IMG/VR virus record: IMGVR_UViG_3300031867_000006
Location: 1-64,000 of that record
Source: a virus
Taxonomy: Duplodnaviria; Caudoviricetes
Direction: 5' to 3' (one strand)
Length of the DNA: 64,000 nucleotides
Shown here: positions 3,864 through 29,259 of the stretch, piece after piece
Position numbering within the stretch: the stretch's first letter is position 1
How the letters are laid out: every line of letters starts with the position of its first letter
The notes under the pieces: generated by a model
The model's input: only the letters and a program-made list of their open reading frames with translations
What the model was told of the DNA's origin: nothing
Databases searched by the model: none
Made by a program: the position numbers and the translations under genes

Positions 3864-3907
3864 GGCAATTAACCTCCTAATTAATAGAATGTTGAGCAAA
3901 TAAACGC

Positions 3908-6086: not shown

Positions 6087-6096
6087 GTCTCCTTTA

Positions 6097-6525
6097 TTAT
6101 TCTATTTCTTCCTCGCCCTCTTCATCATCCTCCTCATATTCATTATCATAGTCACTGTCATCGAAATCAATCGCAAGGACTTCCTCACTCTCATAAAAAT
6201 CCACTTCATCGATGGAGTATTTAACTGTATAGTTGAACCCATCGTAATATACATATAGTATATTACCATTCTCATCTGCTTCTGGAGGTAATACCCATAT
6301 GCTATCATCGTCATATAAGTTCTTAAGATCATTAAATACTATAGCAGCAATATTCTCAAATGGACTGATTATAGAATTAATACATTCCCTAAGATGCTCT
6401 CTGATTACTTCTAAAGCATCCTCCGGCTCATCGAATAGATACTTCTTACCACTAAGCTTATTAAAATCATTATATGACCAATTGCGATCATTTTCTATAG
6501 AAAACTTTGCTAAATAAAAACTCAT
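6097..6525 (-). CDS. Hypothetical acidic protein
   Basis: 142-aa ORF overlapping the upstream stop; D/E-rich tail. Confidence 0.65.
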   Translation of the reverse strand: MSFYLAKFSIENDRNWSYNDFNKLSGKKYLFDEPEDALEVIREHLRECINSIISPFENIAAIVFNDLKNLYDDDSIWVLPPEADENGNILYVYYDGFNYTVKYSIDEVDFYESEEVLAIDFDDSDYDNEYEEDDEEGEEEIE

Positions 6526-8790: not shown

Positions 8791-9247
8791 TTTGCTTAGC
8801 CTCCTGAAGAGATTTGATACACTCTATCATATTATTATACTCTTTATCCAGCAAGCTCTTAGTTTCAATAAGTCTCCTAAGAGTAAATATATGATGAGTT
8901 CTGGAATCATAGGCTACTATGAGTGGATAATTATCGCGCATTTCTGTATACTCATACTTACGCAAGTTGGTGCTTAACAGATCCGTTAACTCTTCGGCTT
9001 CTTTCTTATTGTTTACGAGATAATATGTATAATCTCGACCAATAAGCATTGGTGATAAGTTAAGAAGCATCTCTACCACGCCTGTGTCGTTAACCTTAGA
9101 ACAGTCAATCTTACCGAGTTCATACTTCTTAAGCTCGCCTTTTTGGGTAAGATAGAACTCATGATCATCGGCATCTTCTTCCTTATCAAATACTTTTCCA
9201 TCTGAAGTCTTATACTTCTTTACAGATACTTCTATTTCCTCAATCAT
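8783..9247 (-). CDS. Hypothetical protein
   Basis: 154-aa ORF with N-terminal YKTSDGKVF. Confidence 0.65.
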   Translation of the reverse strand: MIEEIEVSVKKYKTSDGKVFDKEEDADDHEFYLTQKGELKKYELGKIDCSKVNDTGVVEMLLNLSPMLIGRDYTYYLVNNKKEAEELTDLLSTNLRKYEYTEMRDNYPLIVAYDSRTHHIFTLRRLIETKSLLDKEYNNMIECIKSLQEAKQNG

Positions 9248-10143
9248 ATTGCTATCTCCAATTTAATCTGCGGGTTAACTTCCTTGACTTTGGACTGGAT
9301 GTTATTCATTATTCGGAAATCTTCTACAGTATACTCATAGAAGTCCTTGCTAGGTACAGCAAACTCAGGCATCTCATCAGTATCTTCAAATACAATAGAT
9401 TCTCTATTGATGATTTCTCTAGCAGCGTCCATATGACGGTCATAAATCTGTGCATTAGCAATCACATGAGTAAATACTCCGGGAACATAACCCTTAATCT
9501 TAGAAGACTTCTTATAAGTATTCATATGACCAACGATCATGTTAAGCAGAGCAATATACTGAATTTCATTGATTGAGCCTGAGGTAAGATAATCGCTGGA
9601 TCTCTGAATCATCATGCAATCCACGTAATTATACATAGCACCATGTCTTACATTATAGATATTCTGGAAGCAGCAAGGCTTCAATCCATGATCAGACTGG
9701 AAATCATCATTCTGCCATAATGATATAATATGTCTTCTTCCATCGGGATCATTAACTAAGCCATTAAGCAGCTCATTCATAAGATCATGCTCTGCAACAG
9801 TACTGCCATAGCAGGAGCCAATTGTTCGATCTCCACAGTCCCATTCATCCCACCATGTAACACCATACTTATCTTTAAGAAGATCCAGATCATTAGACTG
9901 ATCCTGATAGATCCAAAGAATCTCTCCGATAGCAGACTTTATTGCAGTGGGCCTCAATGTAATGAATGGACAATCTCCTCCGTCAAGATCATACTTCATC
10001 ATCTCATGATTAATAGATAAAGTATGTGCGGGTACATCATCAGCCCATCTAGGTCTAGGATTCTCATCCATTGTACCTTCACGAATGATCTTGTTTAAGA
10101 TCTTCTTCTGATAATAATCTCCCTTTGTTATTAAACCTTCCAT
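9244..10143 (-). CDS. thyA: Thymidylate synthase
   Basis: EILW, YG, DPDGRRHIISLW, LKPCC, QRSSD.......N (dUMP-type Asn) and AQIYDRH. Confidence 0.93.
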   Translation of the reverse strand: MEGLITKGDYYQKKILNKIIREGTMDENPRPRWADDVPAHTLSINHEMMKYDLDGGDCPFITLRPTAIKSAIGEILWIYQDQSNDLDLLKDKYGVTWWDEWDCGDRTIGSCYGSTVAEHDLMNELLNGLVNDPDGRRHIISLWQNDDFQSDHGLKPCCFQNIYNVRHGAMYNYVDCMMIQRSSDYLTSGSINEIQYIALLNMIVGHMNTYKKSSKIKGYVPGVFTHVIANAQIYDRHMDAAREIINRESIVFEDTDEMPEFAVPSKDFYEYTVEDFRIMNNIQSKVKEVNPQIKLEIAI

Positions 10144-13281: not shown

Positions 13282-13533
13282 CTCCTTTAGGATATAATTA
13301 GATTAATAACATGTGCTAGGGGCTATAAAAATCTAAATTATAGCATAAATACATAAAAAATACCCCTAGCCACAGTGGGCTAGGAGCATAAAAAGCGTAA
13401 AATACGCACCAAATGGGCTCATTTACAGAAAAATCTACGCAATGGGTACGTTAAGCAATTTTCACCATTTTTCGCCATTCTCGCCGTGTATTTCGCCAAA
13501 CTTCAATATACACATAATGGTGGTCGTATACTA

Positions 13534-13581
13534 GGCAAAACAAGGTGCTCGGAAGAGGGGTTCCTCGTACCTTGTTTTGCC
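13534..13581. other. Long intergenic hairpin downstream of the silent cassette
   Basis: GGCAAAACAAGGT (13534-13546) / ACCTTGTTTTGCC (13569-13581), 13-bp perfect stem with an inner GGAA/TTCC pair. Confidence 0.6.
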
Positions 13582-14476
13582 CTTAAGTTAGGCGGAAAGG
13601 TTATGAATAGGGCTATATGAAAAATCGGGTATGTGTAAGCGCCCCTTCGCGTGTCTCATGGCGGGTGCTAAATTAATCCTATGCAAACATAGTTAAATAG
13701 CACAGAACGGACTAACGCCGTTATTATAATTATTACCAGTATGAGGACTTGTAGCAGCAGTATTTGTATTAATTATACCAGTTGAAACTACTATTGCAAA
13801 ACTATTACTATCATTATCCGATTGATTATTCTTAGTATTGCATGATAGTAACCACCAATTCATCGCCGAGCCTCCCTCACCCTGCGTTTTCACGCGATTA
13901 CCTGAGGTTGCATACCATTCATATTGTTTGCAATGAGTGTTTTCATTAGATGCATATGTATTGGAGCCGAATATTTCGTATTCTGAGTGAAGAATAAATT
14001 TTACGTTTGAGGTTAACTGTTGGGTTGTAACACCGCCGCCATCATTATGGTAATGTGATGAGGGTTTAACGAGCGAGTAGAAATTACCCTTCGTCGCATT
14101 CTGCTGTGCGGTAGTATATGCGCCATCTATGAATGTCTTCATAGCGGTAGCGTTATAACCGCCGGCATTAGTGTTAGAACTATTCATCTGTCTACCTACG
14201 GAGAGACAATTCTTCTGTCCCACGAGGGCATGATATGTAGTGCCTCCAGATGTAGTATTCTTCTTCCCGTCAGGTCCAGCCTTACATCCAGAAGATGAGG
14301 GCAGGTCGATAACTACGAACTTAACGTCTTCTGCTAATCCATCAGATGAAGAACCATTAAGATGTACTGTACGTTCATTACCGACAGCCCATGTAGTCTG
14401 CGCTAATGTAATAGTACCTGCATCGACTGCAGCGAACATATTGGCTATATCAGACGCAGAACCTGTAGCCCATGAT

Positions 14477-14517
14477 ACAATAGGGTTAGTAACTGTAACA
14501 GACTGTGTAGTCGTATG
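14477..14517 (-). repeat. 41-bp perfect inverted repeat of 24710-24750
   Basis: CATACGACTACACAGTCTGTTACAGTTACTAACCCTATTGT is identical in both copies. Confidence 0.95.
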
Positions 14518-14603
14518 ATTAGATCCATTATTACTATAAGAGATCGTTACATAACTATTAGATGTAGACAGCGGATCAGGAGTTACTGTAAGGGTATTAT
14601 TGT

Positions 14604-14619
14604 TAATGGTCCCCGTGGA
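14604..14619 (-). repeat. 16-bp perfect inverted repeat of 24605-24620, candidate crossover site
   Basis: TCCACGGGGACCATTA in both copies; homology stops a few bases upstream of it. Confidence 0.9.
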
Positions 14620-14648
14620 GCTTTGAGGTCATATCTTTATATAGCCAA

Positions 14649-14661
14649 GACATTGAATTAA
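14649..14661 (+). promoter_or_regulatory. Putative late promoter (ACA-N6-TAA) of the RNAP gene
   Basis: GACATTGAATTAA upstream of the RBS; the same motif precedes about 15 other ORFs. Confidence 0.6.
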
Positions 14662-14686
14662 TTACTATTACGAAAGGAGATCCCCT

Positions 14687-17600
14687 ATGCTTTATTTAGA
14701 TGATTTGAAGTACATGAAGCTTTATAAGAAGCAATTCTTTGCTCCAATTAATAAAGATGATCGTAAGCATAACTCTGCTATACTATTATTGACTAGGAAT
14801 CCATTATACTCTAATGAGATGATGTTTAATAAGTTCATGGTTAATCGTAAGACATTTATATCATATTATATCGAGAAGGATATAATGTATACTATAAATA
14901 ATGAGTCTAGACTTCTGGAAAGAGATTATTATGATAATCTTAACGTGCTCAATGAGGCGTCTGCAGAAGTATATCATGAGACTACAGATCTATATTTTGG
15001 GGAGTCTATGGATGAGGACTTTTTTAATGAATTCTTTGTTAAATCTGGTAATACTCTGCAGTTCTTCAACGAAATGTACGATGAAAAGATATATAATGAA
15101 GTCGCTGGAGTTAACCAGAAGTATAAGAGGCTTCTCTATGTCGATAGGCTTAAGAATAACCGCGATGTGGTTAAGCTCTATAAAGATATGAAGAAGAACT
15201 TTCCAGAGATGGCTCAGTATAAAACCTATCTTGATTATAAGAAATATAAAGGGCTGAATCTCTTTATAGATCTCCGCTATTACATAGATACATTCCTCAA
15301 TAATAATACATTCAAGATTATACAATCTAGAAGCTTATTCTTTGAGTTCTTAAGAAGATCTATTATGGATAAGCGTATTACTGAGGCTGGATATACTAAG
15401 AAGACTGTATTAGTGCCTATAGATGGTATGGCTTGGAGTGCCGATACAAGCATTGATGCGCCCGAGATATATGATTTCCGCAAGTTATTGAATCCTATAT
15501 CATTATTCTATAATAAGCTTAAGTTTGATCCTGAAGCATTAATCAATGCATTTGGAGATATGGACTTTGTATTTATGGGTAAGGAAGGCTATTTCAAATT
15601 CAATCCTACTAAGATAAATACGCAGACTAGAGTGATGTTTATTACATTACTCGATAAGCTTAGAAACAATGAACCCATTGAGGATGATGAGCCTGATAAT
15701 AGCCCTGCTGGAATTACTACAGATATTGCAGACAAGCTCGAAGCAAATAAAGGCATAAAGATTCATAATCTGACTGGAGAGACCAACTCTGACGATGAAG
15801 ATGAACGACTTAAGGCCGATCTAGTCAAGAAGATTAACGATGCGTCAGAGCAATCACCAGATGAGGAGACTGCATTAGATAGAATGGACAAGGGTAGTAT
15901 GGCTGATGATAGCATTCCTGCGGCAGATATAATCGCAGCATTATCTACAGATGCAGACGATAATATCAAGCTCTCAGCAGCCAGAGTTAATCGTATTAAA
16001 GACACTCAGGATAAGTTCTATCAGAGGCAGATCAATGGCAAATCCGTTAAGGATATGGTTAATGAATCTAATAAGCCTGCTGAGTTACCAGAGGTTGCTT
16101 TACCAATTAAGAGCATCAATGAAGAGTGGAAGCACCTCAAGGCTATTAATTTCGAAAAAGAGTATGATCTCGATGCAGATATAGTCAAGATACTCAATAG
16201 CTTATCTGATACAAATAAACATTATCCGGTATCTATATTAGATATGACTATAGAAGACACTTCTACATCTGAGGACTGGATATATACATATACGGTTAAA
16301 TGCGAGGATTATAGCGGCAAGAGATTCACTCTTAAGTTTGATATACCGAAGCTTAGAGATGATAGATTCATGAGACTTAGGTCTAATGAGAAGATATTCT
16401 CTATAGAGATGCCACTTATACCAATAAGCAAGACCGATGAGGATACTACTCAGATAGTATCATTCTATAATAAGATCTTTATAGAAAGATATTATACATC
16501 AACTGGCAAGTCGATGCCTTGGATGAGTAAATTTATTAAGAGGCTTAATGAAGATCCAAACTGTATTTGTGAGCTTGGCGATAATACAAAGATCTGCCAG
16601 AAGTATGAGCTTCCGATAGATTATATAGATATGGCGACTATATTTAATACAATAACTATATCCACACCCAATACTAAGCTTGCTGATCAAGTAACCATCA
16701 TGTTTAACCAGGATGAGTTACGTAAAACCATAGCACCCTTTAAGGTTGATCCTATGAGATTGCCAATTGGCATCTGTAGTGATAAAGTAATATATTACGA
16801 TAGGAATATGCTTGATACTATTAAGCAGCAGTATTTGAACGTCACTGGTAAGAATATAGATATATCTGGTACTGGTTCTAAATGGACTTACAGCAGAGCT
16901 TCTATATTGAATACTAATATACCCGTAATTGTTATATTAGCTCATGATATTGGCTTAATTAAAGCTATGGATATTGCTGGTGTTAAATACACTATTACAG
17001 ATAAGAGACATTCCGTAGATAATAATGAAATACAGATTAAGCTAGCGGATGGATATATCTATTATATGGCTACTTCTGAAGCGTTGATGCTTATGGGTGG
17101 ACTTAATGAATGTGATATGGGCTCAATTAAGATTGCTGAGCTTAACAGCAAGATGACTTGGGTTGATCAGCTGGATAATTTCGGCGGTAGAGTTAAAACA
17201 GACGGTCTGGATAACTTTGCAGATTTGATGTATGATCCTATAACGATAGAAGTATCTAAGGATTATAAATTACCAGAAACTTATCATGAAGCTTTGATAT
17301 ATGCTTCTAATCTACTGGTTGATAATAAGTATATTAAGCATACTGACTTATCCACTAATAGATATAGGACCAATGAGGTCATTGCAGCCCAGTTCTATAG
17401 AGCTCTTAGCTCCTCATATAAGGAATATGCATTATCTAATAAGCATGGTCGTAAAGTCGCAATGTCTATGAAGCAGTCTGCTGTAATTGATCTCATCTTA
17501 GCACAGAATACTACATCTGATCTATCAGTATTTCAGCCTCTATTAGAGATAGAAGCGAAGAATACTATCTCAACCAAGGGCGTTACAGGTATGAATAGTG

Positions 17601-19036
17601 AGAGAGCTTACAAGATGGATAAGAGAGGTTATACAGACTCTATGCTTAATATCATCGCTCAGGCTACTGGATTTGCATCAACTGTTGGTGTAAATAGACA
17701 GACTACTATTAATCCTAATATAGTCGGTGGTAGAGGTTATTTCAAACAGTCTGGCACTGATAATATGAATATAGTAAACTCTATGTCTATGACTGAAGCA
17801 TTGAGTCCTAATGCTCTTACTCATAATGACCCATTCCGTAATGATATGAGTTTTATACAGACCTCTAAACATGGAACACCTATAGAGTACGCAACTCCCG
17901 CATTGGTAACCACAGGCGCAGATGCTGCAATGCCTTATTTATGCTCAAATATGTTTGCTCATAAGTCTAAGATGGCTGGTAAAGTAACCGAATTAACTGA
18001 CAAATATATGATTGTTGAGTATAGAGATGGTTCTAAAGACTTTATTAATCTGGATGAGCAGACCATGAAGAATTCAGACGGTGGGTTCTATATAACGTTA
18101 CAGCTTAAGACAGATCTTAAGGAAGGCCAGGGCTTTAAAGAAGGCGCTATACTTGCTTATGATAAAAAGTCTTTCTCTAATATAGTTGGTGATGGCAAAC
18201 AGCTCTGTTATAACCAGGGTATTCTTACTAAAGTTGCTATAATTACATCTGAAGATGGATATGAAGACTCTGCCTCTATATCTGATTGGTTATCTGAAAT
18301 GATGGCATCTGATGTAGTTGTTAGCAAGCCCGTTATATTGGAACCACAAACCAATGTATTATACTTAGCTAAGAAAGGTCAAACAGTTAAAGAGGGTGAA
18401 CCCATACTTATTTTCCAGAGTCCGTTTGATGAAGAAGATGCTAATGTATTAATTAAGAATCTCAATGTTGAAGATGGTGATATATCTGAGATCGGTAGAA
18501 ATATTATCAAATCTAAAGTCACTGGAGTCATCCAGGATATTAAGATATATAGAACTGTTGATATAGAGGAACTCTCAGACTCTCTACAGAAGATAGTTAA
18601 AGCTAAAGAGACAGAGATTAATAAGCTTAAAAGAGCTTCTGCAGGATCATTATCACCAGCTCAGCTAGATCCAACTGGTAAGCTGGAGATGAACGGTAAA
18701 CTTAAGAATGTAGATGGAATACTTATTGAGATCTATATGAAGTATCATGATAAATTCCAGATAGGATCTAAGCAGGTTGTAGAGTCAGCTAATAAGAATG
18801 TAATCTATAATATCTACTCAGATGAAGATGCTCCTTATACAGATGCTAGACCTACAGAAGCTATAGATTCTATAACCTCTTGTAGCTCATTAGATGGTCG
18901 TATGGTCATCAGCCCTATCATAAATGGTGGATTAAATAAAGCCATGATAGAACTCTCTAGAAAATGTAAAGAAATCTATGGAGTTAAATGGGAAACTATA
19001 CATGAAATTTATCAGAATGAGATTAACAAGAGATAA
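14687..19036 (+). CDS. Phage multisubunit RNA polymerase beta-like subunit (phiKZ/AR9 type, probably virion RNAP)
   Basis: RYRTNE, KGVTG, VGVNRQ, HNDPFR...Q.SKH, GYEDS, GSK......NK (two conserved lysines) and DGRM follow the order of beta-subunit conserved blocks; long N-terminal extension. Confidence 0.85.
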   Translation: MLYLDDLKYMKLYKKQFFAPINKDDRKHNSAILLLTRNPLYSNEMMFNKFMVNRKTFISYYIEKDIMYTINNESRLLERDYYDNLNVLNEASAEVYHETTDLYFGESMDEDFFNEFFVKSGNTLQFFNEMYDEKIYNEVAGVNQKYKRLLYVDRLKNNRDVVKLYKDMKKNFPEMAQYKTYLDYKKYKGLNLFIDLRYYIDTFLNNNTFKIIQSRSLFFEFLRRSIMDKRITEAGYTKKTVLVPIDGMAWSADTSIDAPEIYDFRKLLNPISLFYNKLKFDPEALINAFGDMDFVFMGKEGYFKFNPTKINTQTRVMFITLLDKLRNNEPIEDDEPDNSPAGITTDIADKLEANKGIKIHNLTGETNSDDEDERLKADLVKKINDASEQSPDEETALDRMDKGSMADDSIPAADIIAALSTDADDNIKLSAARVNRIKDTQDKFYQRQINGKSVKDMVNESNKPAELPEVALPIKSINEEWKHLKAINFEKEYDLDADIVKILNSLSDTNKHYPVSILDMTIEDTSTSEDWIYTYTVKCEDYSGKRFTLKFDIPKLRDDRFMRLRSNEKIFSIEMPLIPISKTDEDTTQIVSFYNKIFIERYYTSTGKSMPWMSKFIKRLNEDPNCICELGDNTKICQKYELPIDYIDMATIFNTITISTPNTKLADQVTIMFNQDELRKTIAPFKVDPMRLPIGICSDKVIYYDRNMLDTIKQQYLNVTGKNIDISGTGSKWTYSRASILNTNIPVIVILAHDIGLIKAMDIAGVKYTITDKRHSVDNNEIQIKLADGYIYYMATSEALMLMGGLNECDMGSIKIAELNSKMTWVDQLDNFGGRVKTDGLDNFADLMYDPITIEVSKDYKLPETYHEALIYASNLLVDNKYIKHTDLSTNRYRTNEVIAAQFYRALSSSYKEYALSNKHGRKVAMSMKQSAVIDLILAQNTTSDLSVFQPLLEIEAKNTISTKGVTGMNSERAYKMDKRGYTDSMLNIIAQATGFASTVGVNRQTTINPNIVGGRGYFKQSGTDNMNIVNSMSMTEALSPNALTHNDPFRNDMSFIQTSKHGTPIEYATPALVTTGADAAMPYLCSNMFAHKSKMAGKVTELTDKYMIVEYRDGSKDFINLDEQTMKNSDGGFYITLQLKTDLKEGQGFKEGAILAYDKKSFSNIVGDGKQLCYNQGILTKVAIITSEDGYEDSASISDWLSEMMASDVVVSKPVILEPQTNVLYLAKKGQTVKEGEPILIFQSPFDEEDANVLIKNLNVEDGDISEIGRNIIKSKVTGVIQDIKIYRTVDIEELSDSLQKIVKAKETEINKLKRASAGSLSPAQLDPTGKLEMNGKLKNVDGILIEIYMKYHDKFQIGSKQVVESANKNVIYNIYSDEDAPYTDARPTEAIDSITSCSSLDGRMVISPIINGGLNKAMIELSRKCKEIYGVKWETIHEIYQNEINKR

Positions 19037-19145
19037 CATTTAAATAATCTGAAGTGTGACTAATGGAGGTTACGTTGCGCTCGCGATTACATTTTGTAAC
19101 TACAGGTTTAGACTACATAAAATTATTTTATGGAGGTATTTAAGA

Positions 19146-19823
19146 ATGGCTACTAATAAAAAGACGGTTATCCGTAAAAAGATTGGTAATGTGGTATACA
19201 ATTTACTGCCCCAGACAAGTTCTGATATCGTAACACACGTTACGACCGGCAATAGCTCTACCACAGTTGCAGCGCTGTTGAATACACTTAATGACACCAT
19301 GGGTACTCTTTCTGAGTCCACAGTTGGTGATGAGATCGACGCTAAGATCCTTGCATTCAAGAAGGAAATCTATGGCGTAAACAGTGATGAGTACAAGACT
19401 GGTATCGCTGCAGCTCTTGATACAATCAAAGAGATCGCTGACATCCTTGGAGATTCTGAGGAAGCTGGTACAGTTATCGCTAACATCGCTACACTTAAGG
19501 CTGAAGTTGAGACAGCTACAACTGGCCTCCTTGATCGTGTAAGCACAATCGAGTCCGACCTCAATACAGCAACTACAGGTCTTAAGGATCGTGTTTCTGC
19601 ATTGGAGAGCTTCACAACTGGTCAGACAACTGATGACGTTCCTGTTGGTCCTAACGAGGATCGTAACTACGTTACTACAACTGAAAAGAATAAGATCGCT
19701 TCCAGCGCAAACGTAACAGTTCTTGCTGCTTCTGCATCTGCTGATTCTGACGTTGCAAACGCTGAGGATCTGTACTTCCTCGAGATTACAGCTCCTGTTG
19801 CTGACGGCGGCGTTACACCGTAA
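19146..19823 (+). CDS. Tail fibre-associated coiled-coil protein
   Basis: Start ATG 19146 after GGAGG; KKIG..YNLLPQTSSD N-motif; ALDTIKEIAD; TATTGL.DRVS heptad repeats. Confidence 0.65.
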   Translation: MATNKKTVIRKKIGNVVYNLLPQTSSDIVTHVTTGNSSTTVAALLNTLNDTMGTLSESTVGDEIDAKILAFKKEIYGVNSDEYKTGIAAALDTIKEIADILGDSEEAGTVIANIATLKAEVETATTGLLDRVSTIESDLNTATTGLKDRVSALESFTTGQTTDDVPVGPNEDRNYVTTTEKNKIASSANVTVLAASASADSDVANAEDLYFLEITAPVADGGVTP

Positions 19824-19842
19824 TCATACACTGACACTTTTG

Positions 19843-19880
19843 GGCGACTAGAATTACCTCCATTCTAGTTGTCTTTCTTT
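19843..19880 (+). terminator. Intrinsic terminator-like hairpin
   Basis: GGCGACTAGAAT-TACCTCC-ATTCTAGTTGTC followed by TTTCTTT. Confidence 0.65.
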
Positions 19881-19903
19881 AAAAGGTATAAGGGTACATT
19901 AGA

Positions 19904-20227
19904 ATGCGAGTATTAATCAAAAAGAAGATTGGTAATCAAGTTCAACATTTATACCCGCAAACTTATGCTGACGTTGTGCTATATAATGATAGTACTAGCG
20001 TAGCATCTGTGCTAACGTCAATACTTTCAGATATAAGCGAAATAAAGGCTGCGTTAGGTATCAATGATACTGTGTATGCTTTGGATGGTAATAATGATTA
20101 TATTACTGATTCCGATGGTGATAAAGTTATTGCTATTTCCAATGCTACGACTGTAGCTCAAAACGCAAACAATTCCGCAGAGCAACTTGATGATGGCAAT
20201 ACAGAAGACCTTGTTGTCAGTGAATAA
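19904..20227 (+). CDS. Tail fibre-associated protein (shared N-terminal motif)
   Basis: KKIGNQVQHLYPQTYADVV. Confidence 0.6.
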   Translation: MRVLIKKKIGNQVQHLYPQTYADVVLYNDSTSVASVLTSILSDISEIKAALGINDTVYALDGNNDYITDSDGDKVIAISNATTVAQNANNSAEQLDDGNTEDLVVSE

Positions 20228-20302
20228 TGGTATAAGTTATTAGACGGATATAAAAGTTCGAACTTTGATTATTAAGGTCTTATTTTTAAACATGTTTAAA
20301 AG

Positions 20303-20330
20303 GTGCCCTAGGGAGAGATCCCTAGGGTAC
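20303..20330. terminator. CCCTAGGG-family hairpin
   Basis: GTGCCCTAGGGA-GAGA-TCCCTAGGGTAC followed by TTT. Confidence 0.7.
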
Positions 20331-20425
20331 TTTGGCTAGCCAATTAATTGGTAAGCTAGAAAACATTTATATAATGCTTAATATAGCACACGATAAAATC
20401 TTACAGAAAGGAAGGTATTAATACT

Positions 20426-20995
20426 ATGGCTATTAATAAAGGAACTTTAGCCAAGAAGATTGACGGTGTGATGGAATACATTTATCCAAAGACATCTGCT
20501 GATCAGGTCGTTACTGATCCAACACGTAATACTAGACTTCCTGAAACGTTAGGTGGTAAAGCAAACGCTCCATCATTTATAGAGACAGTATTATTAGCCA
20601 GTAATTGGGTCGAGGGTACTATCTATAATGAAGTTACTCCTAATGGTTCTGAGAATCCGTCTACTAGCGGTTGGTATGAACTGAGTAATGATACGTATAC
20701 TGCATCTTCAGATACAACTGTAAATAATAATAAAACGTATTATGCTCGGGGTTCGAAATATACTTATCAGCTGCCATATCATAATAACTATAGAGTGACT
20801 GTTAATGCATCTAAATATGCTACTCTGCAGGAGTTCTTCACTTTCGTTAATGGTATGATAGTCGGCGATTCTGATAATAATATACTTACCGCGCTTGGAT
20901 CACTTCCGGGAATAAATATCCACGTACTCTTAGAAGTGAGTAAGATAGCTGAGAATCCATCAGCTTCAGATACATATGTAGAACCAAATTCATAA
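20426..20995 (+). CDS. Tail fibre-associated protein
   Basis: MAINKGTLAKKIDGVMEYIYPKTSADQV; C-terminal LASNW...LTALGSLP.INI.V; ACA-N6-TAA at 20362. Confidence 0.65.
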   Translation: MAINKGTLAKKIDGVMEYIYPKTSADQVVTDPTRNTRLPETLGGKANAPSFIETVLLASNWVEGTIYNEVTPNGSENPSTSGWYELSNDTYTASSDTTVNNNKTYYARGSKYTYQLPYHNNYRVTVNASKYATLQEFFTFVNGMIVGDSDNNILTALGSLPGINIHVLLEVSKIAENPSASDTYVEPNS

Positions 20996-21010
20996 AGGAG
21001 GTAAATTACA

Positions 21011-21622
21011 ATGGCTATTAATAAAGCTACTCTTGCAAAAGAGATAGACGGAGTCATCGAATATATCTATCCTAAAACTTCCGGCGATATAGTTGTATAC
21101 GATGATACTCATTCAGTATCAGCAATGATCTCAATGCTTAGAGCTACTAAAGTCGACCAGATTGAAGGTATGGGATTATCTTCTAACGACTTTAGTAATG
21201 CTTATCGTGATAAGCTCGATAGTATTGAGAGGGGTGCTACCGTAACCAGGACTGATGAGAATCTCAACGCAACTTCAAGTAACCCTCCGGCTAACTCAGC
21301 TGTTACTGGAGCTATGTTGAATAAGCTTGAGAGTAAGCATACGTATATTAATTATACACTGAGAGCATCTGGATGGACTCAGGATGGCTTCTATATGATT
21401 GAGAATGAGTATCCTACATCGGATTATCTTGTTGGTCTCATGGTAGGTCCTATGAATAATGATCAATACGAGGCTTTCTCTGCTGCACATATCATTGGAT
21501 CTGAGCTTGATACAGAAAGCAATTACTTCAAGGCTATTGGTGAGATTCCCGACATTGATATTCCTGTAATATTCGATATTCGTAAGATTACACCTGACGT
21601 TCTGCCTTCGAGTACACACTGA
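21011..21622 (+). CDS. Tail fibre-associated protein, paralog of 20426-20995
   Basis: MAINKATLAKEIDGVIEYIYPKTSGD; KVDQIEGMGLSSNDFSNAYRDKLDSIE fibre-type repeat. Confidence 0.7.
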   Translation: MAINKATLAKEIDGVIEYIYPKTSGDIVVYDDTHSVSAMISMLRATKVDQIEGMGLSSNDFSNAYRDKLDSIERGATVTRTDENLNATSSNPPANSAVTGAMLNKLESKHTYINYTLRASGWTQDGFYMIENEYPTSDYLVGLMVGPMNNDQYEAFSAAHIIGSELDTESNYFKAIGEIPDIDIPVIFDIRKITPDVLPSSTH

Positions 21623-21668
21623 TAATTAAGTTAGTCTGACCAACTAACTTTATAGGAGGATAATAAAA

Positions 21669-22235
21669 ATGAACAATAACTTACCTGAGGGGACTGTATT
21701 TAGGAATATAAAGCGTTTTAAGGGTTCCAGCGTATTTGGTAAACGTATAAATTTCCCGTTTAATACCGAATTCGTAATTAATGATGATGGTTATCTTTGT
21801 CATAAAGATAAAGATGGGAAATGGTTTGCTGTATGCCATAAGGAATCTGAGAATGCTTATAATATAATCCTTCCAAAGTACCCAGATGAATCCGAAGAGG
21901 ATTTCCAAGAGAAAGCTAGCTTATATAAAGCTATCAAAGAGAAGACTACCGGAGCTTCATATACAGATCCTGGAAGAATCTCAGTTAAAGATGATGCTTA
22001 TAATAAGCTATTTGCTGATGAAACTTGCTATAAGTTTAGAAAACTTAACGATGAGTTTGATCATGAGAATTGGAACTGGGATAGAACCAAGCTTCAGGAG
22101 GCATCTCTTGAAGATTTGCGCCACATGTGGGATGTTATTAAGGATGCTTGTGAAAGAGTAATTCCTATAAATACAGTACCGAAAGAAGAGTTACTAAAAC
22201 AGTCAAAAGATCAGCAACAATCTATGATGATCTAA
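21669..22235 (+). CDS. Hypothetical protein of the fibre/DGR module
   Basis: 188-aa ORF with RBS; from memory, KRFKG...SENAY...WNW....ASLEDLRHM resembles genes beside DGR fibres in Clostridia prophages (unverified). Confidence 0.55.
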   Translation: MNNNLPEGTVFRNIKRFKGSSVFGKRINFPFNTEFVINDDGYLCHKDKDGKWFAVCHKESENAYNIILPKYPDESEEDFQEKASLYKAIKEKTTGASYTDPGRISVKDDAYNKLFADETCYKFRKLNDEFDHENWNWDRTKLQEASLEDLRHMWDVIKDACERVIPINTVPKEELLKQSKDQQQSMMI

Positions 22236-22265
22236 TAATAAAAATTTATAAGGAGGTATATACAG

Positions 22266-22553
22266 ATGGCTGATACAAAAGGTATTGAGTTCACTAGCGA
22301 ACAGGCCCAGCGTATCTGGGATGCTATTGGAGCAATTAATCAGCAGATGTGGGAGCTCAGAAAAGACGTAGATCGTATTTCTGAAATGCGCCATAGTGTT
22401 TCCACAGTAGGTATTGATGAAGCTCAGGAAGCTATCGCTGAGCTCGGCGTTATAGTCCTTGGTGATGGAGAGATCCCCGAGGAGGCGGAACCTACAGAAG
22501 AGGGTGGCGGTGAGGAAGAACCTTCCGAAGAGCCTGTTGAGCCCACAGAATAA
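22266..22553 (+). CDS. Small coiled-coil protein, possible fibre chaperone
   Basis: DEAQEAIAELG coiled coil, acidic tail, RBS. Confidence 0.55.
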   Translation: MADTKGIEFTSEQAQRIWDAIGAINQQMWELRKDVDRISEMRHSVSTVGIDEAQEAIAELGVIVLGDGEIPEEAEPTEEGGGEEEPSEEPVEPTE

Positions 22554-22570
22554 TATAGGAGGTACTGATA

Positions 22571-22696
22571 ATGGTTAAAATTTATTATAACAGAGTAAAA
22601 TCTGGAGCATGGACTATTGAGCAGGTTCCTTCTAAGTATAGGGAAGCTGTAAGGAAAATGCTTGAAGCAGACAGTAGCATGCCGACTGGCGAATAA
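22571..22696 (+). CDS. 41-aa small protein (CD1375/XkdX-like)
   Basis: Not in ORF track; GGAGG RBS; MVKIYYNRVKSGAWTIEQVPSKYREAVRKMLEADSSMPTGE. Confidence 0.7.
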   Translation: MVKIYYNRVKSGAWTIEQVPSKYREAVRKMLEADSSMPTGE

Positions 22697-22717
22697 TATA
22701 GAAAGGAGATAAAGTAA

Positions 22718-25465
22718 ATGCCTACATTAGTTAATATGGGCGGCGGTGCTACATCATTAGCATCTATTATACGTAGCATTAAAGTTACGCAGCAGCCTAA
22801 CAAAATGATATACGCAATGAATGAAGCGTTCGACACTACAGGTTTGCAGGTGTCCGCATTCTATGCGATGGGTAATAGTTCTGAAATCACAAACTGGACG
22901 ACTAGCCCTGCAGATGGCGATCCGATTACTACTAATCCCACAACGGTTACAGTATCCGCTAACGACGACAAGGGAAATGAGCATCATGTTACTTTCCAGG
23001 TTGTTTGTAAGTATGTAACTGGTATCGCTGTTACAACACCGCCTAACAAGACAAAGTATAAGGTTGGTGAGAATCTTGACACTACAGGCATGGTAGTTAC
23101 GGCTACATACTCTAATGGCGATACCGCTATTGTAACACCGGTAGTTTCCGCTAATGGACAGCCTGTGGCTAAGGGAACCTCATCGTTCAACATTTCTTAT
23201 ACTCAGGACGGTGTGACTGTAACGACCTCACAGGATATCACTGCAATATATCCTACAAGCTTATCGGTTACTTCTGTACCGACAAAGACTAAATATAAGG
23301 TTGGCGAGACATTCGATGATTCTAATATGATCGTAACAGCAATGTTCTCAGATAGCTCTACCACAGAGGTAGTTACAGCATCTTGTGCTTATGATACTAC
23401 TACTCCGTTTGTAAAGACGGATGATGCAGTTGCTATCTCATATACAGGATATGGTGAGACTGTTGCAACCTCCCAGGCTGTTACAGTTATTTACCCGACT
23501 TCTATTGCAGTTTCTACTGGATCTGCTAAGAGTAAGTATAAGGTTGGTGAAGCATTTGATTCTACCGGTATGGTTGTTACCGCAACATTCAGTGATAATA
23601 TAACTACTGAGGACGTAACAGCTTCTTGTACTTTGAGCCCTGATAATGGAGATACTCTTACAAAGAGTGCTACAGAAATTGCTGTTTCTTATACAGGATA
23701 TGGCGAGACTTGCACAACCACCCAGGCTATCACAATGATCTGGCCTACGAGTTTGTCGCTTGCAACCGCACCTACAAAGACCAAGTATAAAGTTGGAGAA
23801 ACCTTTGATGGTACTGGCATGACAGTTACCGCTACATTCAGTGATGGAACTACGACTGAGAATGTGACTTCATCGGCTACGTATGATAGTTCGACTGCAC
23901 TTGTTAAGGGTGCGACCACACATGCTATCGAGTACACAGGATACGGTGAGACAGTATCTTGCAACGCTAATATTAGCGTAATTTATCCTACATCGATTGC
24001 TGTTACAACAAATCCGACTAAGATGTCTTACGCCGGTGGCGAAGCTCTCAATCTCTCCGGAATGGTTATTACCGCAACATTCAGCGATAACTCTACTACG
24101 GAAGTTGTTAACTACACATCCTCTTCACCCGCAAATGGGGCTACACTTGCAGCCGGACAGAACACCAGAACTGTTACTATCACTTATACAGGATATGGCG
24201 AGACTTGCACAACATCCTTCGATGTATCTATGGTTTATCCTACAGCGGTTGCTCTTAAGTATACACCGGCAAACAATAATAGCTACATCGCAGATCAGCA
24301 GTTAGATCTTACTCCGTCTTCCGGTACAGTTACTTATACTATCACGTATAATAATGGATCTACATCTGATGTAACCAGCGGTGTAACTGTAAGTCCTGCT
24401 ATTGGCACGCAGCTTACTTCCAGCCATACTAAGTATACCCTGTCCTACACAGGTGGTGGCACAACTGTAACACATGATTACGACTTAACCATTAAGTATG
24501 TAACTTCTATTGCCGTTACCACAGAGCCGACTAAGAAGACTTACTTCTCCGGTGAATCGTTTGATAAGACTGGTATGGTTGTTACAGCGACATATTCTGA
24601 TAGTTCCACGGGGACCATTAGCAATAATGCTATTTCTATCACTCCTTCTGGAGCATTAAGCACGAGTAATTCGTATGTGACTATTAGTTATACCAATAAT
24701 GGTACCGCTCATACGACTACACAGTCTGTTACAGTTACTAACCCTATTGTTTCATGGGCTACTGGTACAGGCGCAGAGATCAAACAGATGATGGATGCTG
24801 TTGATGCTGGACAGATTACCCTTGCTGGTACTACATGGGCTGTTGGTAATGAAAGATCAGTACATCTTGCCGGTAACATTAATGAAGACGTTAAGTTTGT
24901 TGTTGAGGATATCGGTGGAACTACATCTGGTGGTACTGCGTATCATTTTGCCGTTGGTCAGAAAAATGGTTTATCGGCAACTCGACAGATGAATTCATCG
25001 GATACAAACTCCGGCGGGTACAACTCATCAGCAATGAAGACTTTTATTGAAGGTGATTATCAGACAGCACTTCAGAATGCCACTACAGGTAACTTCTGGG
25101 AAGCTGTAAAATCAGCAACACATAAATCGCAGATTTATAGCAGTGGTCTGCAGAGTACAACCGCGAAGGTTATTTTACATTCAATATTTGAAACTAATTC
25201 AAATAACACATTCTATAATAACAATTCGTGGAGTCAATATATGCCAGATGAAACTACAGCGAATGGGTTCCATCAATTTGAATGGTATAAGACCTCTGGA
25301 AACCGTATTAAGAAGCAAGGTGAGTCAGGCAGCGCGAATTACTCTTGGTCACGCTCAGCCGATACGGGCTACAGCTACCACTTCTGGCATGTTTATACAG
25401 GCGGTACAGCCACCGGCAGCACCGCGTCCAACAGTCTTCTGGTGGCCCCGTTCTGTGTCCTCTAA
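22718..25465 (+). CDS. DGR target protein: eight bacterial Ig-like (Big_3-type) repeats plus C-terminal C-type-lectin/DUF6273-like variable domain; likely receptor-binding fibre/adhesin
   Basis: Repeats SIAVTT.P.K..Y..GE.FD.TGMVVTAT(Y/F)SD; C-terminal W.RS...V...G.....A.....VAPFC encoded by the VR. Confidence 0.9.
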   Translation: MPTLVNMGGGATSLASIIRSIKVTQQPNKMIYAMNEAFDTTGLQVSAFYAMGNSSEITNWTTSPADGDPITTNPTTVTVSANDDKGNEHHVTFQVVCKYVTGIAVTTPPNKTKYKVGENLDTTGMVVTATYSNGDTAIVTPVVSANGQPVAKGTSSFNISYTQDGVTVTTSQDITAIYPTSLSVTSVPTKTKYKVGETFDDSNMIVTAMFSDSSTTEVVTASCAYDTTTPFVKTDDAVAISYTGYGETVATSQAVTVIYPTSIAVSTGSAKSKYKVGEAFDSTGMVVTATFSDNITTEDVTASCTLSPDNGDTLTKSATEIAVSYTGYGETCTTTQAITMIWPTSLSLATAPTKTKYKVGETFDGTGMTVTATFSDGTTTENVTSSATYDSSTALVKGATTHAIEYTGYGETVSCNANISVIYPTSIAVTTNPTKMSYAGGEALNLSGMVITATFSDNSTTEVVNYTSSSPANGATLAAGQNTRTVTITYTGYGETCTTSFDVSMVYPTAVALKYTPANNNSYIADQQLDLTPSSGTVTYTITYNNGSTSDVTSGVTVSPAIGTQLTSSHTKYTLSYTGGGTTVTHDYDLTIKYVTSIAVTTEPTKKTYFSGESFDKTGMVVTATYSDSSTGTISNNAISITPSGALSTSNSYVTISYTNNGTAHTTTQSVTVTNPIVSWATGTGAEIKQMMDAVDAGQITLAGTTWAVGNERSVHLAGNINEDVKFVVEDIGGTTSGGTAYHFAVGQKNGLSATRQMNSSDTNSGGYNSSAMKTFIEGDYQTALQNATTGNFWEAVKSATHKSQIYSSGLQSTTAKVILHSIFETNSNNTFYNNNSWSQYMPDETTANGFHQFEWYKTSGNRIKKQGESGSANYSWSRSADTGYSYHFWHVYTGGTATGSTASNSLLVAPFCVL
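25333..25459 (+). repeat. DGR variable repeat (VR)
   Basis: 127-bp ungapped match to TR with 18 mismatches, 17 of them at TR adenines. Confidence 0.97.
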
Positions 25466-25472
25466 TGTCTGA

Positions 25473-25558
25473 GCGAAGCGAAGGAGCACGAAAGTGCGAC
25501 TGGTAGCGTAGCGGATTATCCTCGACGGCGTCTATCATAAAGCCGTCGAGGATTTTTT
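25473..25558 (+). promoter_or_regulatory. Post-VR hairpin cluster and terminator
   Basis: GCGAAGC (25473-79), GCAC-GAAA-GTGC (25486-97), GCGTAGC (25506-12) and a 12-bp stem ATCCTCGACGGC/GCCGTCGAGGAT (25518-53) followed by a T-run. Confidence 0.75.
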
Positions 25559-25584: not shown

Positions 25585-26202
25585 GTGATTTATGTGTCGG
25601 TACCGGCATATAAAAGACAGTTATCATGTGTAGAGTATATAAATAGTGCTATGCAAATGGCTGCTTTATGTACAACTATGTATAATAAAGTTCCGCAAAA
25701 ATATAAATACCCGTTTGAACAGATGTTAAACATGTCTTACGATGCGTTATATCATCTAGATATGGCTAATAATACTAATTATAGAGAAACTAGCTTTGTT
25801 AATGATTATCTGTTTAAACGAAATAATATAACTTATGGTAAAGAAGAAATAAGAACTATAGGTTGTATTGCTGAGATTAATTTTGGTATTCTCGAAGCAA
25901 ATAATGTATTAAAGAAAAGAAACATTACTCACTATAGAGAAAATGTTGGAAGGATAGTTGATACTGAACTAAAAACTGCAAATGGTGTATTAAACTATCA
26001 TGCTAAGAAATTTAGAAATAAAATGAATGATTTGGGTATGACGATACAACAGGTTAATTCATACCCGCAAGCAATTAATGGTACAGGATTAAATGCGGTA
26101 AATCAATACATAAAAACCGCACCAATGAAAACCCAATTGGTTCCAAAGAATAACAACAATAAAGTAAGTATGTGTAAAATAATAGATAAAAAATCTGCTT
26201 AA
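25585..26202 (+). CDS. avd: DGR accessory variability determinant (Avd-like) with C-terminal extension
   Basis: Sits between VR and TR; helical, basic; SVPAYKRQLS.VEY N-terminus of the type seen in Firmicutes-phage Avd-like proteins. Confidence 0.7.
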   Translation: MIYVSVPAYKRQLSCVEYINSAMQMAALCTTMYNKVPQKYKYPFEQMLNMSYDALYHLDMANNTNYRETSFVNDYLFKRNNITYGKEEIRTIGCIAEINFGILEANNVLKKRNITHYRENVGRIVDTELKTANGVLNYHAKKFRNKMNDLGMTIQQVNSYPQAINGTGLNAVNQYIKTAPMKTQLVPKNNNNKVSMCKIIDKKSA

Positions 26203-26303: not shown

Positions 26304-26430
26304 CGCGAATAACTCTTGGTCACGCTCAGCCAATACGAACAACGGCAACAACTTCTGGAATGTTAATACAGACGGTACAGCCAACAACAACAACGCGTCC
26401 AACAGTAATCTGGTGGCCCCGTTCTGTGTC
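26304..26430 (+). ncRNA. DGR template repeat (TR)
   Basis: AAC/AAT-rich copy of the VR (39 adenines, 15 AAY codons in target frame) between avd and RT; the spacer to 26755 is probably part of the DGR RNA. Confidence 0.95.
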
Positions 26431-26755: not shown

Positions 26756-28000
26756 ATGAGTTACGCAAATTATATTGATCCTAAATATAGGATTCCTTTC
26801 GAATATGTAGCTAATTTTGAACCGATGTATAATGCATGTTATGAATGTCTTACTGGAGTTATGTGGAAAGCCAGTGCTCAAAATTTTTGTTTTAATTTAG
26901 ATCAAATAGCATATCAGCTATCAATGGAATTATTATATGGTATTTATAGGTCTAATGGATTTTCAAATTTTAAAATAAATGAGAGGGGTAAAATTAGAGA
27001 TATTCATTCGGTTCATATAACAGAAAGAGCTGTCCAAAAATCATTAGTTCAAAATGGATTAAGACCCATTATAGCACCTAGATTAATATCTGCTAATTGT
27101 GCTACTCTTCCGGGAAGAGGAACAGATTATGCTTTAGATTTATTAAGAATTCATTTATTTAATCATGTAAAAGAACATGGTCTTGAAGGTGGAATTCTTA
27201 CTATGGATTATCATGCTTATTATGATTCTGTAGTTCATAGTATATTACTTAATGACCTTAGACAAATAATCTGGGATGATAGAATATTCATGCTTTCGCA
27301 GTATTTCATCGATATGTTTACTAATATGGAGGCTGTATCTAAGCATGGATTTGCGTATAACCAAGTTGCTCAAGAAATAGTTGCTGAAACTCAAGAAGAG
27401 TCAGTTAGTACATGTAATGAAGATGAAGAATATATGCTTGAGAAATTTGGGCCTAGAGGATTGGGTCTAGGCTCAGAAATATCGCAAATTACGGCAATAT
27501 TTTATCCAAATCCAATAGATCATTATATAAAAGAACAACTTAGAATTAAAGGCTATGCTAGATATATGGACGATAGCTATCTTATATCTAACGATTTAGG
27601 ATATCTAAATTATTGTAAAGATGTAATAACTGATATGTCACTTAAAAGAGGATTAGTATTTAATCCAAATAAATTAGTTATTACTCCATTTAAAAGCGGA
27701 AAGGGTAATTCATTTGTTTATTTAAAGAAGCACTGCCATTTCACAAATACCGGAAAATTAATTATGGAAATATCAGATAAAGCTATAACTAAACATAGAC
27801 AACAACTTCTTACGCAGTATGAGTTATTCATACGTGGCAGGATGACTATAGATGAAGTTTATCAATCATTTATGTGCTGGAGAGAATCTGTTAAGAAATA
27901 TAACTCAAGAAATTCATTATTTGATTTAACTCAATTATTTTTCTATTTATTTAGAGGTTATATAAATCCAGTAATGAAGGATAAACTAAATAATATCTAA
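26756..28000 (+). CDS. DGR reverse transcriptase
   Basis: ERGKIRDI, ERAVQ, GRGTDYA, MDYHAYYDS, GLGLGSEISQ and YARYMDD motifs; adjacent TR/VR pair. Confidence 0.95.
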   Translation: MSYANYIDPKYRIPFEYVANFEPMYNACYECLTGVMWKASAQNFCFNLDQIAYQLSMELLYGIYRSNGFSNFKINERGKIRDIHSVHITERAVQKSLVQNGLRPIIAPRLISANCATLPGRGTDYALDLLRIHLFNHVKEHGLEGGILTMDYHAYYDSVVHSILLNDLRQIIWDDRIFMLSQYFIDMFTNMEAVSKHGFAYNQVAQEIVAETQEESVSTCNEDEEYMLEKFGPRGLGLGSEISQITAIFYPNPIDHYIKEQLRIKGYARYMDDSYLISNDLGYLNYCKDVITDMSLKRGLVFNPNKLVITPFKSGKGNSFVYLKKHCHFTNTGKLIMEISDKAITKHRQQLLTQYELFIRGRMTIDEVYQSFMCWRESVKKYNSRNSLFDLTQLFFYLFRGYINPVMKDKLNNI

Positions 28001-28020: not shown

Positions 28021-29259
28021 TTGGAGGTGATTAAAATGGCTAAAGTAAAAAACAATACCATTCAATATAAATATAATATAGTCCTTAAGTATCTCAATAA
28101 TAAGGGTTCTGGAGCATCATCTGTAGATATTAAAACAGAGTCTATTAAGATGCTGACTATAGATTATGACTTTGATGCAGACGATTGCATGCCTGTAATA
28201 TTCGCCAATCTTAATTTAGATAAATCATTTGTAGACCATATGGTAGAGTATGCGAATGATAATTTATTTATGATGGCAATACAGAAATATGATGATCTAT
28301 CAGAGACTAAAGAGAAAATAGAATGCTTTAGGGAGAAGTTCGTCTATTTCTTACCAAATGATGTGAATAAGAATGATCAGATAGATTATAATGAAGACAC
28401 TCAGGAGGAAAACGGTGATAATACATACCAGAATGTAACTATAGGAATGATCTGTCTTAAACATATAAATCTCAATAGGAACTTCAATAAGCCTAAAGTT
28501 GTTAAAAAGAATACTATGTATGAAATAGTACAATCTATACTTAGCAAGCATAATGATATTCTTATTGAACCATTTGACGATAATAAAAAGTTTGACTCTC
28601 TTATCTTACCCGATAAGGACTCTGTTAATAAGGAGCTTGCTGCATTAAATGATTATAGAGTATTCTATGATACTCCATATAGATTCTTTTATGATTTCGA
28701 TTGCGCTTATCTAGTAAGCTCCTCCGGCAAGGCTATTACCAGACAATGTGAAAAATATGGTAATATAATTGTACAGATTAAAGATATAATGTCTGATGAG
28801 GCTAATGACGTTGGATTTACTGTTAATAATGGCGATGGAGTCTATCAGGTTCCAGTAAGCTATGCAGATACACAGATATTTGATAATACAGTCGCTAATA
28901 AATCAAAAAATAATATCACTGGTAAAACATCGGATGGTAAAACAAATAAGAGACTCAATAACCAGGCTTCGTATACCAAGTCTATAACCAGCACAGTCAG
29001 AATCAATAACGAAAATGAAGGCATGCTCGATAACATCAAAGCCGATCAGAATAGTAACAATTTCTTTATATACTTCAGTAAGGCTGCATTAGATATAGAC
29101 TTGTTTACTATAAATAAGAAGATTACTGTTAAGAATATAGATCGCTATAATAAATATGATGGTAAATTCTTATTATATAGAAAACGCGACATGTTTATAC
29201 TGGAAGACAATACATTTAGTCTTATGGAAATGATTAACTTAAGAAGAATAGAGAATTAA
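28021..29259 (+). CDS. Putative virion structural (baseplate hub-like) protein
   Basis: 412-aa ORF (probable start MAKVK after GGAGG); ACA-N6-TAA at 28008; function inferred from context only. Confidence 0.45.
   Translation: MEVIKMAKVKNNTIQYKYNIVLKYLNNKGSGASSVDIKTESIKMLTIDYDFDADDCMPVIFANLNLDKSFVDHMVEYANDNLFMMAIQKYDDLSETKEKIECFREKFVYFLPNDVNKNDQIDYNEDTQEENGDNTYQNVTIGMICLKHINLNRNFNKPKVVKKNTMYEIVQSILSKHNDILIEPFDDNKKFDSLILPDKDSVNKELAALNDYRVFYDTPYRFFYDFDCAYLVSSSGKAITRQCEKYGNIIVQIKDIMSDEANDVGFTVNNGDGVYQVPVSYADTQIFDNTVANKSKNNITGKTSDGKTNKRLNNQASYTKSITSTVRINNENEGMLDNIKADQNSNNFFIYFSKAALDIDLFTINKKITVKNIDRYNKYDGKFLLYRKRDMFILEDNTFSLMEMINLRRIEN

Follow-up and report, generated by a model that had tools for sequence, protein, structure and literature searches.

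Tail-fibre tips are exchanged among phages by recombination at conserved linkers, leaving gene fragments behind, as one expression of general phage mosaicism (T-even gp37/38, for example). The known fibre switches (Gin, Cin, Min, and Rin) have an adjacent invertase, short identical sites, and a constant part outside the flipping segment (PMC6109161). Gin, Cin, and Min are serine-invertase systems, with fibre segments in Mu (G), P1 (C), and p15B (PMC6109161); the Rin shufflon of Bifidobacterium prophages has a tyrosine invertase and 11-bp rix sites (Mavrich et al. 2018, PMC6109161). Receptor-binding proteins with C-type-lectin or DUF6273 tips, such as BPP-1 Mtd and the “tentaclins,” are diversified by diversity-generating retroelements (DGRs), DUF6273 being a C-type-lectin-like domain and a known type of DGR target (PMC10743442). 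The locus described here is in the first 64,000 nt (“the window”) of a phage contig, IMG/VR record IMGVR_UViG_3300031867_000006. It includes an expressed fibre gene that is the target of a DGR and, in inverted orientation to it, a cassette encoding a second tip without a start. This cassette (“tip B”) is probably the phage's former native tip, displaced by a recombinational inversion that joined the fibre stalk to an acquired module made up of another tip (“tip A”) and its DGR.

The source contig is 165,769 bp long (35.9% GC), with a CheckV completeness of about 59%, so that some 40% of the genome is unseen and contig-wide searches cover 165 kb only. The phage is large and gut-type, with a multisubunit RNA polymerase (RNAP) beta-like gene and ribosome sites of the Shine-Dalgarno (SD) type: by a crude count, an SD-like 4-mer is found upstream of 67% of long open reading frames (ORFs) in the genome, versus 9% of random positions.

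A headless tip in inverted homology to the expressed fibre

The features first needed, with lengths in amino acids (aa), are:

13693-14628, minus strand: headless tip cassette (tip B); 311 codons followed by a stop, encoding the final ~47 aa of an immunoglobulin-like (Ig; Big_3) repeat and, after it, a C-type-lectin-like tip (DUF6273)
14359-14627, strand not assigned: left inverted homology arm, holding a 16-mer (14604-14619) and a 41-bp identical block (14477-14517)
22718-25465, plus strand: expressed fibre, the DGR target; 915 aa, with ~8 Big_3 repeats and DUF6273 tip A; variable repeat (VR) at 25333-25459
24597-24868, strand not assigned: right inverted homology arm, inside the expressed fibre gene; 16-mer at 24605-24620, 41-bp block at 24710-24750

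The cassette frame (13696-14628, minus strand) runs uninterrupted through 311 sense codons to a stop at 13693-13695. Directly upstream is a TGA (14631-14629), and then an in-frame TAA (14661-14659). The first in-frame ATG, GTG, or TTG is the ATG at 14439, which would leave 248 aa, and no SD-like 4-mer precedes either this or an out-of-frame ATG at 14632. The original prediction, made from the letters of the window, had described an intact 311-codon frame without a usable start, and the TGA and the missing SD at the internal ATG bear this out. A rescue of the start by an alternative genetic code was considered and rejected: the TAA closes the frame, with no start in between.

The cassette belongs to the DUF6273 family, which includes standalone proteins of ~260-280 aa (P0004-P0007, P0012). 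In these the domain begins at V-S-W-A, upstream of the cassette's internal Met, and a product from ATG 14439 would therefore be truncated. The Met itself (Met64) is inside the conserved domain, past the nearly invariant W53/A54. That the cassette has neither start nor SD, and its internal Met only within the conserved domain, argues for a displaced tip. An AlphaFold2 model of the cassette had a mean pLDDT confidence score of 58, too low for folds to be searched with it.

The out-of-frame ATG at 14632 shares bases with the TGA at the upstream end of the cassette frame; being one base off, it would need a +1 shift to enter that frame. It opens a nine-codon ORF (MTSKLHGDH, then a stop) with no SD and with a GGGG run inside, 18 nt downstream.

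Independent expression of the cassette is very unlikely. Translation might begin at ATG 14439 and give a 248-aa protein, or begin at ATG 14632 (ATGACC...CGGGGAC), perhaps of a leaderless transcript, and reach the full frame through a +1 shift. Standalone DUF6273 proteins of about this size do exist, the second ATG overlaps the TGA and has a GGGG run behind it, the frame is intact, and there is a dedicated terminator after it. However, both ATGs lack an SD, the frameshift is wholly conjectural, and a protein begun at Met64, past W53/A54, would have no N-terminal attachment segment. The scaffold motif W-x-R-S is also altered, its conserved Arg being replaced by Leu in the cassette.

As originally proposed, the cassette is collinear with the last ~290 aa of the fibre, with 56% identity to fibre aa 629-883 (BLASTP, E = 2e-82). 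At the nucleotide level the arms are 71% identical over ~270 bp, and dS (synonymous divergence) is 0.79 in the arm and above 2 (saturated) elsewhere, in agreement with the synonymous-site divergence predicted around the identical blocks. The predicted GC-rich 16-mer is present, inverted, at 14604 and 24605 and nowhere else in the contig. The perfect 41-bp block, likewise inverted and in the same reading frame, was verified in a codon alignment as 13 identical codons in a row. Permutation, with the amino-acid pattern taken as given, puts its P at 0.008, so the block is real, with moderate significance. Exact matches to the 41-mer were not found in IMG/VR or the JGI metagenomes. Both blocks had been placed inside the last Ig repeat; the 41-bp block, however, is only partly within it, since it runs from the last Ig strand across the linker that leads to DUF6273 (...TVTNP-IVSWA). 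Homology begins at residue ~36 of this 82-residue repeat, that is, in mid-domain and directly beside a conserved RNAP promoter motif, which again argues for displacement.

The arms are present in two independent assemblies. ENA assembly ERZ27256863 contains the same phage, with a 100% identical RNAP protein, and an 11.7-kb contig from ENA (k141) has a cut minus-strand gene, then RNAP, the small genes, and a 907-aa fibre (P0138). Its minus-strand gene starts exactly 248 bp from the RNAP start, as does the cassette ATG; because of this equal spacing, the contig crosses both arms in the window's orientation, and we infer that its cut 237-aa product is the cassette. An identical layout in an independent assembly supports the reading of the cassette as a displaced native tip. 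The two assemblies that resolve the arms thus have one and the same orientation, and further contigs from the ERZ27256863 sample and SRR9036512 extend both flanks as in the window. A Logan contig begins inside the 41-bp block, as expected at k = 31, and carries no orientation information. An assembly artefact at 14.6 kb, considered as a separate explanation, is unlikely given the ENA contig with its 248-bp spacing. The ENA k141 and Logan k31 assemblies both end within 13728-13856, in the cassette's Asn-rich C-terminal region; these breaks, known from contig ends only, suggest that strains vary there or that the region is repeated somewhere in the unseen part of the genome.

Gene order, tip affinities, and probable displacement of the native tip

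The neighbouring features, including the template repeat (TR) and reverse transcriptase (RT) of the DGR, are:

13360-13692, minus strand: non-coding tail of the cassette, structured, ~300 nt; hairpin with a 14-bp stem at 13534-13581; strong intrinsic terminator at 13360-13389
14629-14686, plus strand: junction at 14629-14652; conserved motif upstream of RNAP at 14653-14670; SD at 14673-14679
14687-19036, plus strand: multisubunit RNAP beta-like gene (phrog_3148, E = 2e-138), inside the inverted block
19056-22696, plus strand: small fibre-associated genes (255, 107, 189, 203, 188, 95, and ~41 aa), syntenic with relatives
25585-26202, plus strand: Avd-like ORF of the DGR
26304-26430, plus strand: TR of the DGR
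26756-28000, plus strand: RT of the DGR (Pfam RVT_1, phrog_1423)
28021-29259, plus strand: gene x, 412 aa, or 407 aa from ATG 28036; far boundary of the inverted block

No close DNA relative was found in INPHARED, or in IMG/VR queried with cassette or RNAP peptides. More distant RNAP relatives are many, with 55-64% identity (63-64% for the nearest) and on contigs of 225-320 kb. Gene order was compared in the two closest lineages with long flanks, one represented by L001, L002, and L008 and the other by L003. Common to both is the order A(+), x(-), RNAP(+), small genes(+), fibre region, where A stands for homologues of window 38693-30998 (minus strand) and x is homologous to window 28021-29259 (plus strand). 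The fibre region has three tandem DUF6273 fibres in L001, and two in another relative, L006; in L003 an RT(+) and ThyA(+) come after the small fibre genes, ThyA being a homologue of window 9244-10143 (minus strand).

In the window, both flanks are on the minus strand and the RNAP-to-RT block (14.63-28.0 kb) is on the plus strand; this block is therefore inverted relative to the nearest relatives. The original prediction had proposed comparing the orientation of the segment in related genomes, and in this comparison the RNAP and stalk block is the inverted part and the cassette stands at its boundary. The cassette has the direction of ThyA and the terminator at 13360-13389 behind it; at the far end of the block, the boundary falls in the 20-35 bp that separate RT from x. 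If only 14.6-24.6 kb is inverted, the relatives' order is obtained exactly, with the addition of a 3.4-kb DGR module (tip A, Avd, TR, RT) between x and RNAP. This restoration of order is a reason for regarding the cassette as the displaced native tip. The strong terminator is another, being what would be expected at the end of the old fibre operon.

A similar arrangement might have arisen by a non-homologous inversion of the RNAP-to-RT block, either cutting a tandem second fibre in its last Ig repeat or following insertion of the module into the fibre gene. The tandem DUF6273 paralogues of L001 and L006 make the first version conceivable, as does the DGR of L003, downstream of the fibre region and in the same direction. 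A cut stalk would then be expected, inverted, between RT and x, where there are only 20-35 bp; and either a coincident breakpoint or a second, precise deletion of the second stalk would be needed. This route is unlikely.

The left joint can be placed closely. A motif, TTGrACAAATTAATAATA, is found with an SD upstream of RNAP in eight of eight genomes (the window phage, L001, L003-L005, L007, L009, and L010), 3-15 nt before the SD except in the outlier L010; it is a candidate phage-specific promoter or operator. The window copy is at 14653-14670, so the joint is confined to 14629-14652, and the motif fits the putative promoter that had been predicted just inside the boundary.

The non-coding tail of the cassette (13390-13692, minus strand) is relatively GC-rich, with a folding z of -3.76 over its ~300 nt, and has no Rfam match; an Rfam scan of 12.5-29.5 kb found nothing relevant. 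A structured gap of ~310 nt likewise follows the tip-B fibre of L006, with no detectable sequence similarity to the window tail. L006 also has, at 4996-6620, a second fibre paralogue in two overlapping frames (102 and 433 aa as called); the split could be a frameshift, decay, or sequencing error.

The tips themselves have different affinities. Tip B occurs on full-length fibres elsewhere: the tip of a 696-aa fibre of L006 (P0137) is 64-65% identical to the cassette in amino acid sequence and 71% in nucleotides, and an 846-aa fibre (P0139) is 51% identical to it. P0137 is located behind orthologues of the window phage's small fibre genes, and therefore at the same locus as the window fibre. A tip B on a complete fibre at this locus argues for the cassette as the native tip.

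Tip A has a foreign affinity. The expressed tip (24745-25486) is 80% identical in nucleotides to a standalone 268-aa DUF6273 gene of a siphophage contig, L012, and the similarity begins at 24745, which is both the IVSWA domain boundary and the end of the 41-bp block; this onset, too, argues for displacement of tip B by an acquired tip. By sequence, tip A and tip B are each closer to tips in other phages than to one another.

L012 is an 8-kb siphophage-like contig with Sipho_Gp37, Laminin_G_3, and XkdX neighbours and no DGR visible in it; its nucleotides 3509-4247 are ~80% identical to window 24745-25486 plus part of the TR (26304-26381). Such likeness points to cross-family transfer of the tip domain. 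GC content gives no sign of foreign origin for the DGR module.

The cassette is a mosaic of these affinities. In codons 1-60, 45 informative sites group it with the expressed fibre and 15 with tip B; in codons 181-245, 55 group it with the P0137 tip B and 22 with the expressed fibre. Together with an arm dS (0.79) well below that of the rest, this mosaicism fits the favoured inversion.

The retroelement is a DGR with the fibre at 22718-25465 as its target: it has an RT, adenine-specific TR/VR differences (17 of 18 mismatches on TR adenines), and a C-terminal VR in a target of the C-type-lectin (DUF6273) kind. The cassette was also considered as a second VR or TR, and this was rejected for the 165 kb, its 3' end aligning with TR only at CCGTTCTGTG, with no other copy. 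The VR-equivalent of the cassette does not resemble TR; it is rich in AT and Asn and has 13 additional aa.

A 70-72-nt coding piece of the cassette (13905-13976) encodes IFGSNTYASNENTHCKQYEWYA, which is kept in tip-B fibres of other phages. The piece recurs at 98.6% identity in two intergenic sites of the same genome (G000 77934-78003 and 158698-158769). Both of these copies are preceded by a common CCTATTTATATATA, part of a 16-nt palindrome and found nowhere else; the two face opposite ways and differ in how they are oriented to the local genes.

Displacement of the native tip could have proceeded as follows. The ancestral layout would have been A(+), x(-), RNAP(+), small genes(+), fibre with stalk and tip B(+), terminator, and further on ThyA(+), as in the nearest relatives. 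A module consisting of half an Ig repeat, the linker, tip A with its VR, Avd, TR, and RT might then have landed between x and RNAP in opposite orientation. Homologous recombination between the resulting inverted arms (half Ig repeat, linker, and start of the tip domain) would have inverted the RNAP-stalk segment, with the outcome that stalk, tip A, and DGR are expressed together and tip B is headless, abutting the RNAP promoter and facing its old terminator. The cassette would be untranslated today. Exchange with the expressed gene could still occur through the 41-bp stretch and the surrounding 71%-identical homology, so that rare reversal or patch-wise gene conversion may take place; either would be incidental to the homology and not the work of a dedicated switch.

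Several points weigh against this account. The 311-codon frame is still intact in a genome of 36% GC, with a nonsynonymous to synonymous ratio (dN/dS) of 0.13-0.34; either the displacement is recent, therefore, or the cassette is under selection, and the intact frame is the main reason why the switch and donor readings discussed below stay alive. The polarity of the inversion rests on two relative lineages only: in six other relatives (L004, L005, L007, L009, L010, and L011) the place upstream of RNAP is taken by a giant tape-measure-like gene, so the RNAP neighbourhood is plastic. The relatives found include none with a DGR between x and RNAP. Nor can the order of events be proved, as the same end state would result if the DGR module had first entered the fibre gene and the RNAP-to-RT block had then been inverted non-homologously; and the genome in hand is about 59% complete.

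Possible reversal and gene conversion, and possible consequences

The geometry of the locus is as originally described: the headless cassette is inverted and in frame, so placed that a crossover in the arms would join the stalk to tip B. From this a candidate inversion switch had been proposed. In an active switch, the 10-kb RNAP-stalk segment would flip repeatedly through a recombinase in the unseen 40% of the genome or in the host, or through efficient phage recombination at the 41-bp block or 16-mer. Several observations are compatible with such a switch. The arms are inverted and in frame, with the identical block and the unique 16-mer, and the cassette ORF is intact; both orientations should be viable, since the RNAP motif is inside the segment and the alternative orientation is the relatives' synteny; and the fine-scale mosaicism suggests more than one exchange. 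That only 59% of the genome has been seen also leaves room for it.

The proposal of a switch is not upheld by the rest of the evidence. The original prediction had itself noted no recognizable invertase in the window, and Pfam searches extend this to the whole 165-kb contig: no match was found to PF00239 (Resolvase) or PF00589 (Phage_integrase) at E ≤ 1, to PF07508 (large-serine Recombinase), or to RecA-family recombinases. The identical, inverted 16-mer and 41-mer are part of 270 bp of homologous coding sequence, in which no site of the invertase type was recognized; known switches keep short identical sites, whereas these arms are only 71% identical, with the dS given above. Homology sets in at mid-domain and not at the edge of a module, which speaks against a switch, and the topology would be unusual, with the constant part and eight other genes inside the flipping segment. 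Finally, the IMG/VR and ENA k141 contigs both span the two arms in one orientation. An active, reversible switch is accordingly rather unlikely, and so, to a like degree, is a two-state fibre of a jumbo phage in which recombination over the 10-kb RNAP-bearing segment, with no dedicated invertase, would give the stalk by turns a DGR-hypermutated tip and a fixed, ancestral one.

Strain variation bears on a further possibility, that of a silent donor: tip B as a reservoir from which patches are copied into the expressed tip by gene conversion, in the manner of pilS/pilE, with no inversion. P0138, from the near-identical strain of the ENA contig, equals the window fibre over aa 1-825 and differs in its last ~90 aa by a 9-aa indel and many substitutions. 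To judge from its sequence it is an allelic replacement beyond DGR mutagenesis, with tip alleles exchanged among strains. The divergence (window 25190-25465) begins ~45 aa upstream of the VR. The variant stretch has KTQGEGGSA, without the 9-aa insert, as in the cassette; this likeness, the patchy mosaic between cassette and expressed tip, and the intact cassette frame would all suit a donor. However, the C-terminus of P0138, which is known as a protein only, matches other tip-A alleles (P0003) at least as well as the cassette, so that an outside donor explains it, and there is a single cassette here versus many in known systems. A donor cassette is distinctly unlikely.

If the cassette is the relic of a displaced native tip, the locus still illustrates clearly how a phage can acquire a tip served by a DGR, with the joint at the Ig/tip linker, the old tip intact, and a 10-13-kb RNAP-bearing block inverted. 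Tip domains would also appear to move between jumbo phages and siphophages. Should rare recombination re-express tip B, the phage would have a fallback receptor specificity beside the hypermutable one, with a bearing on host-range prediction and on the escape of DGR targets from dead-end variants. Should the two tips be toggled, the VR of a silent tip A could go on diversifying free of selection, in a layered host-range system.

Comparison with known systems

The locus resembles the Gin, Cin, and Min segments in having two alternative fibre C-termini in opposite orientation, one of them without a start, such that, after inversion, the constant part and the other tip would share one reading frame. 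It differs from them in lacking, within the 165 kb, an invertase, and in having as arms 270 bp of diverged homology, with no short dyad crossover sites recognized; the stalk, RNAP, and seven other genes are inside the segment and the tips outside; and a single orientation was observed. With the Rin shufflon it has in common a phage of gut-type Gram-positive hosts and silent C-terminal receptor-binding cassettes, but the contig has no Phage_integrase-family gene in its 165 kb, no repeated short core site, and a single cassette.

Among DGR-diversified receptor-binding proteins, the expressed fibre is a standard target, with a C-terminal VR in DUF6273, TR and RT downstream, and adenine-specific differences. 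The cassette is not a target; it is a paralogous tip whose VR-equivalent is unlike the TR. In gene-conversion systems of the pilS/pilE and vls type, segments of cassettes without a start turn up in the expression site of variants. Here the cassette has no start and the arms are mosaic; the variant segment of P0138 is not specifically cassette-like. In tip exchange of the T-even type the joint is likewise at the linker of Ig repeat and tip and a leftover fragment remains; here, however, the leftover is intact, inverted, and one crossover from re-expression.

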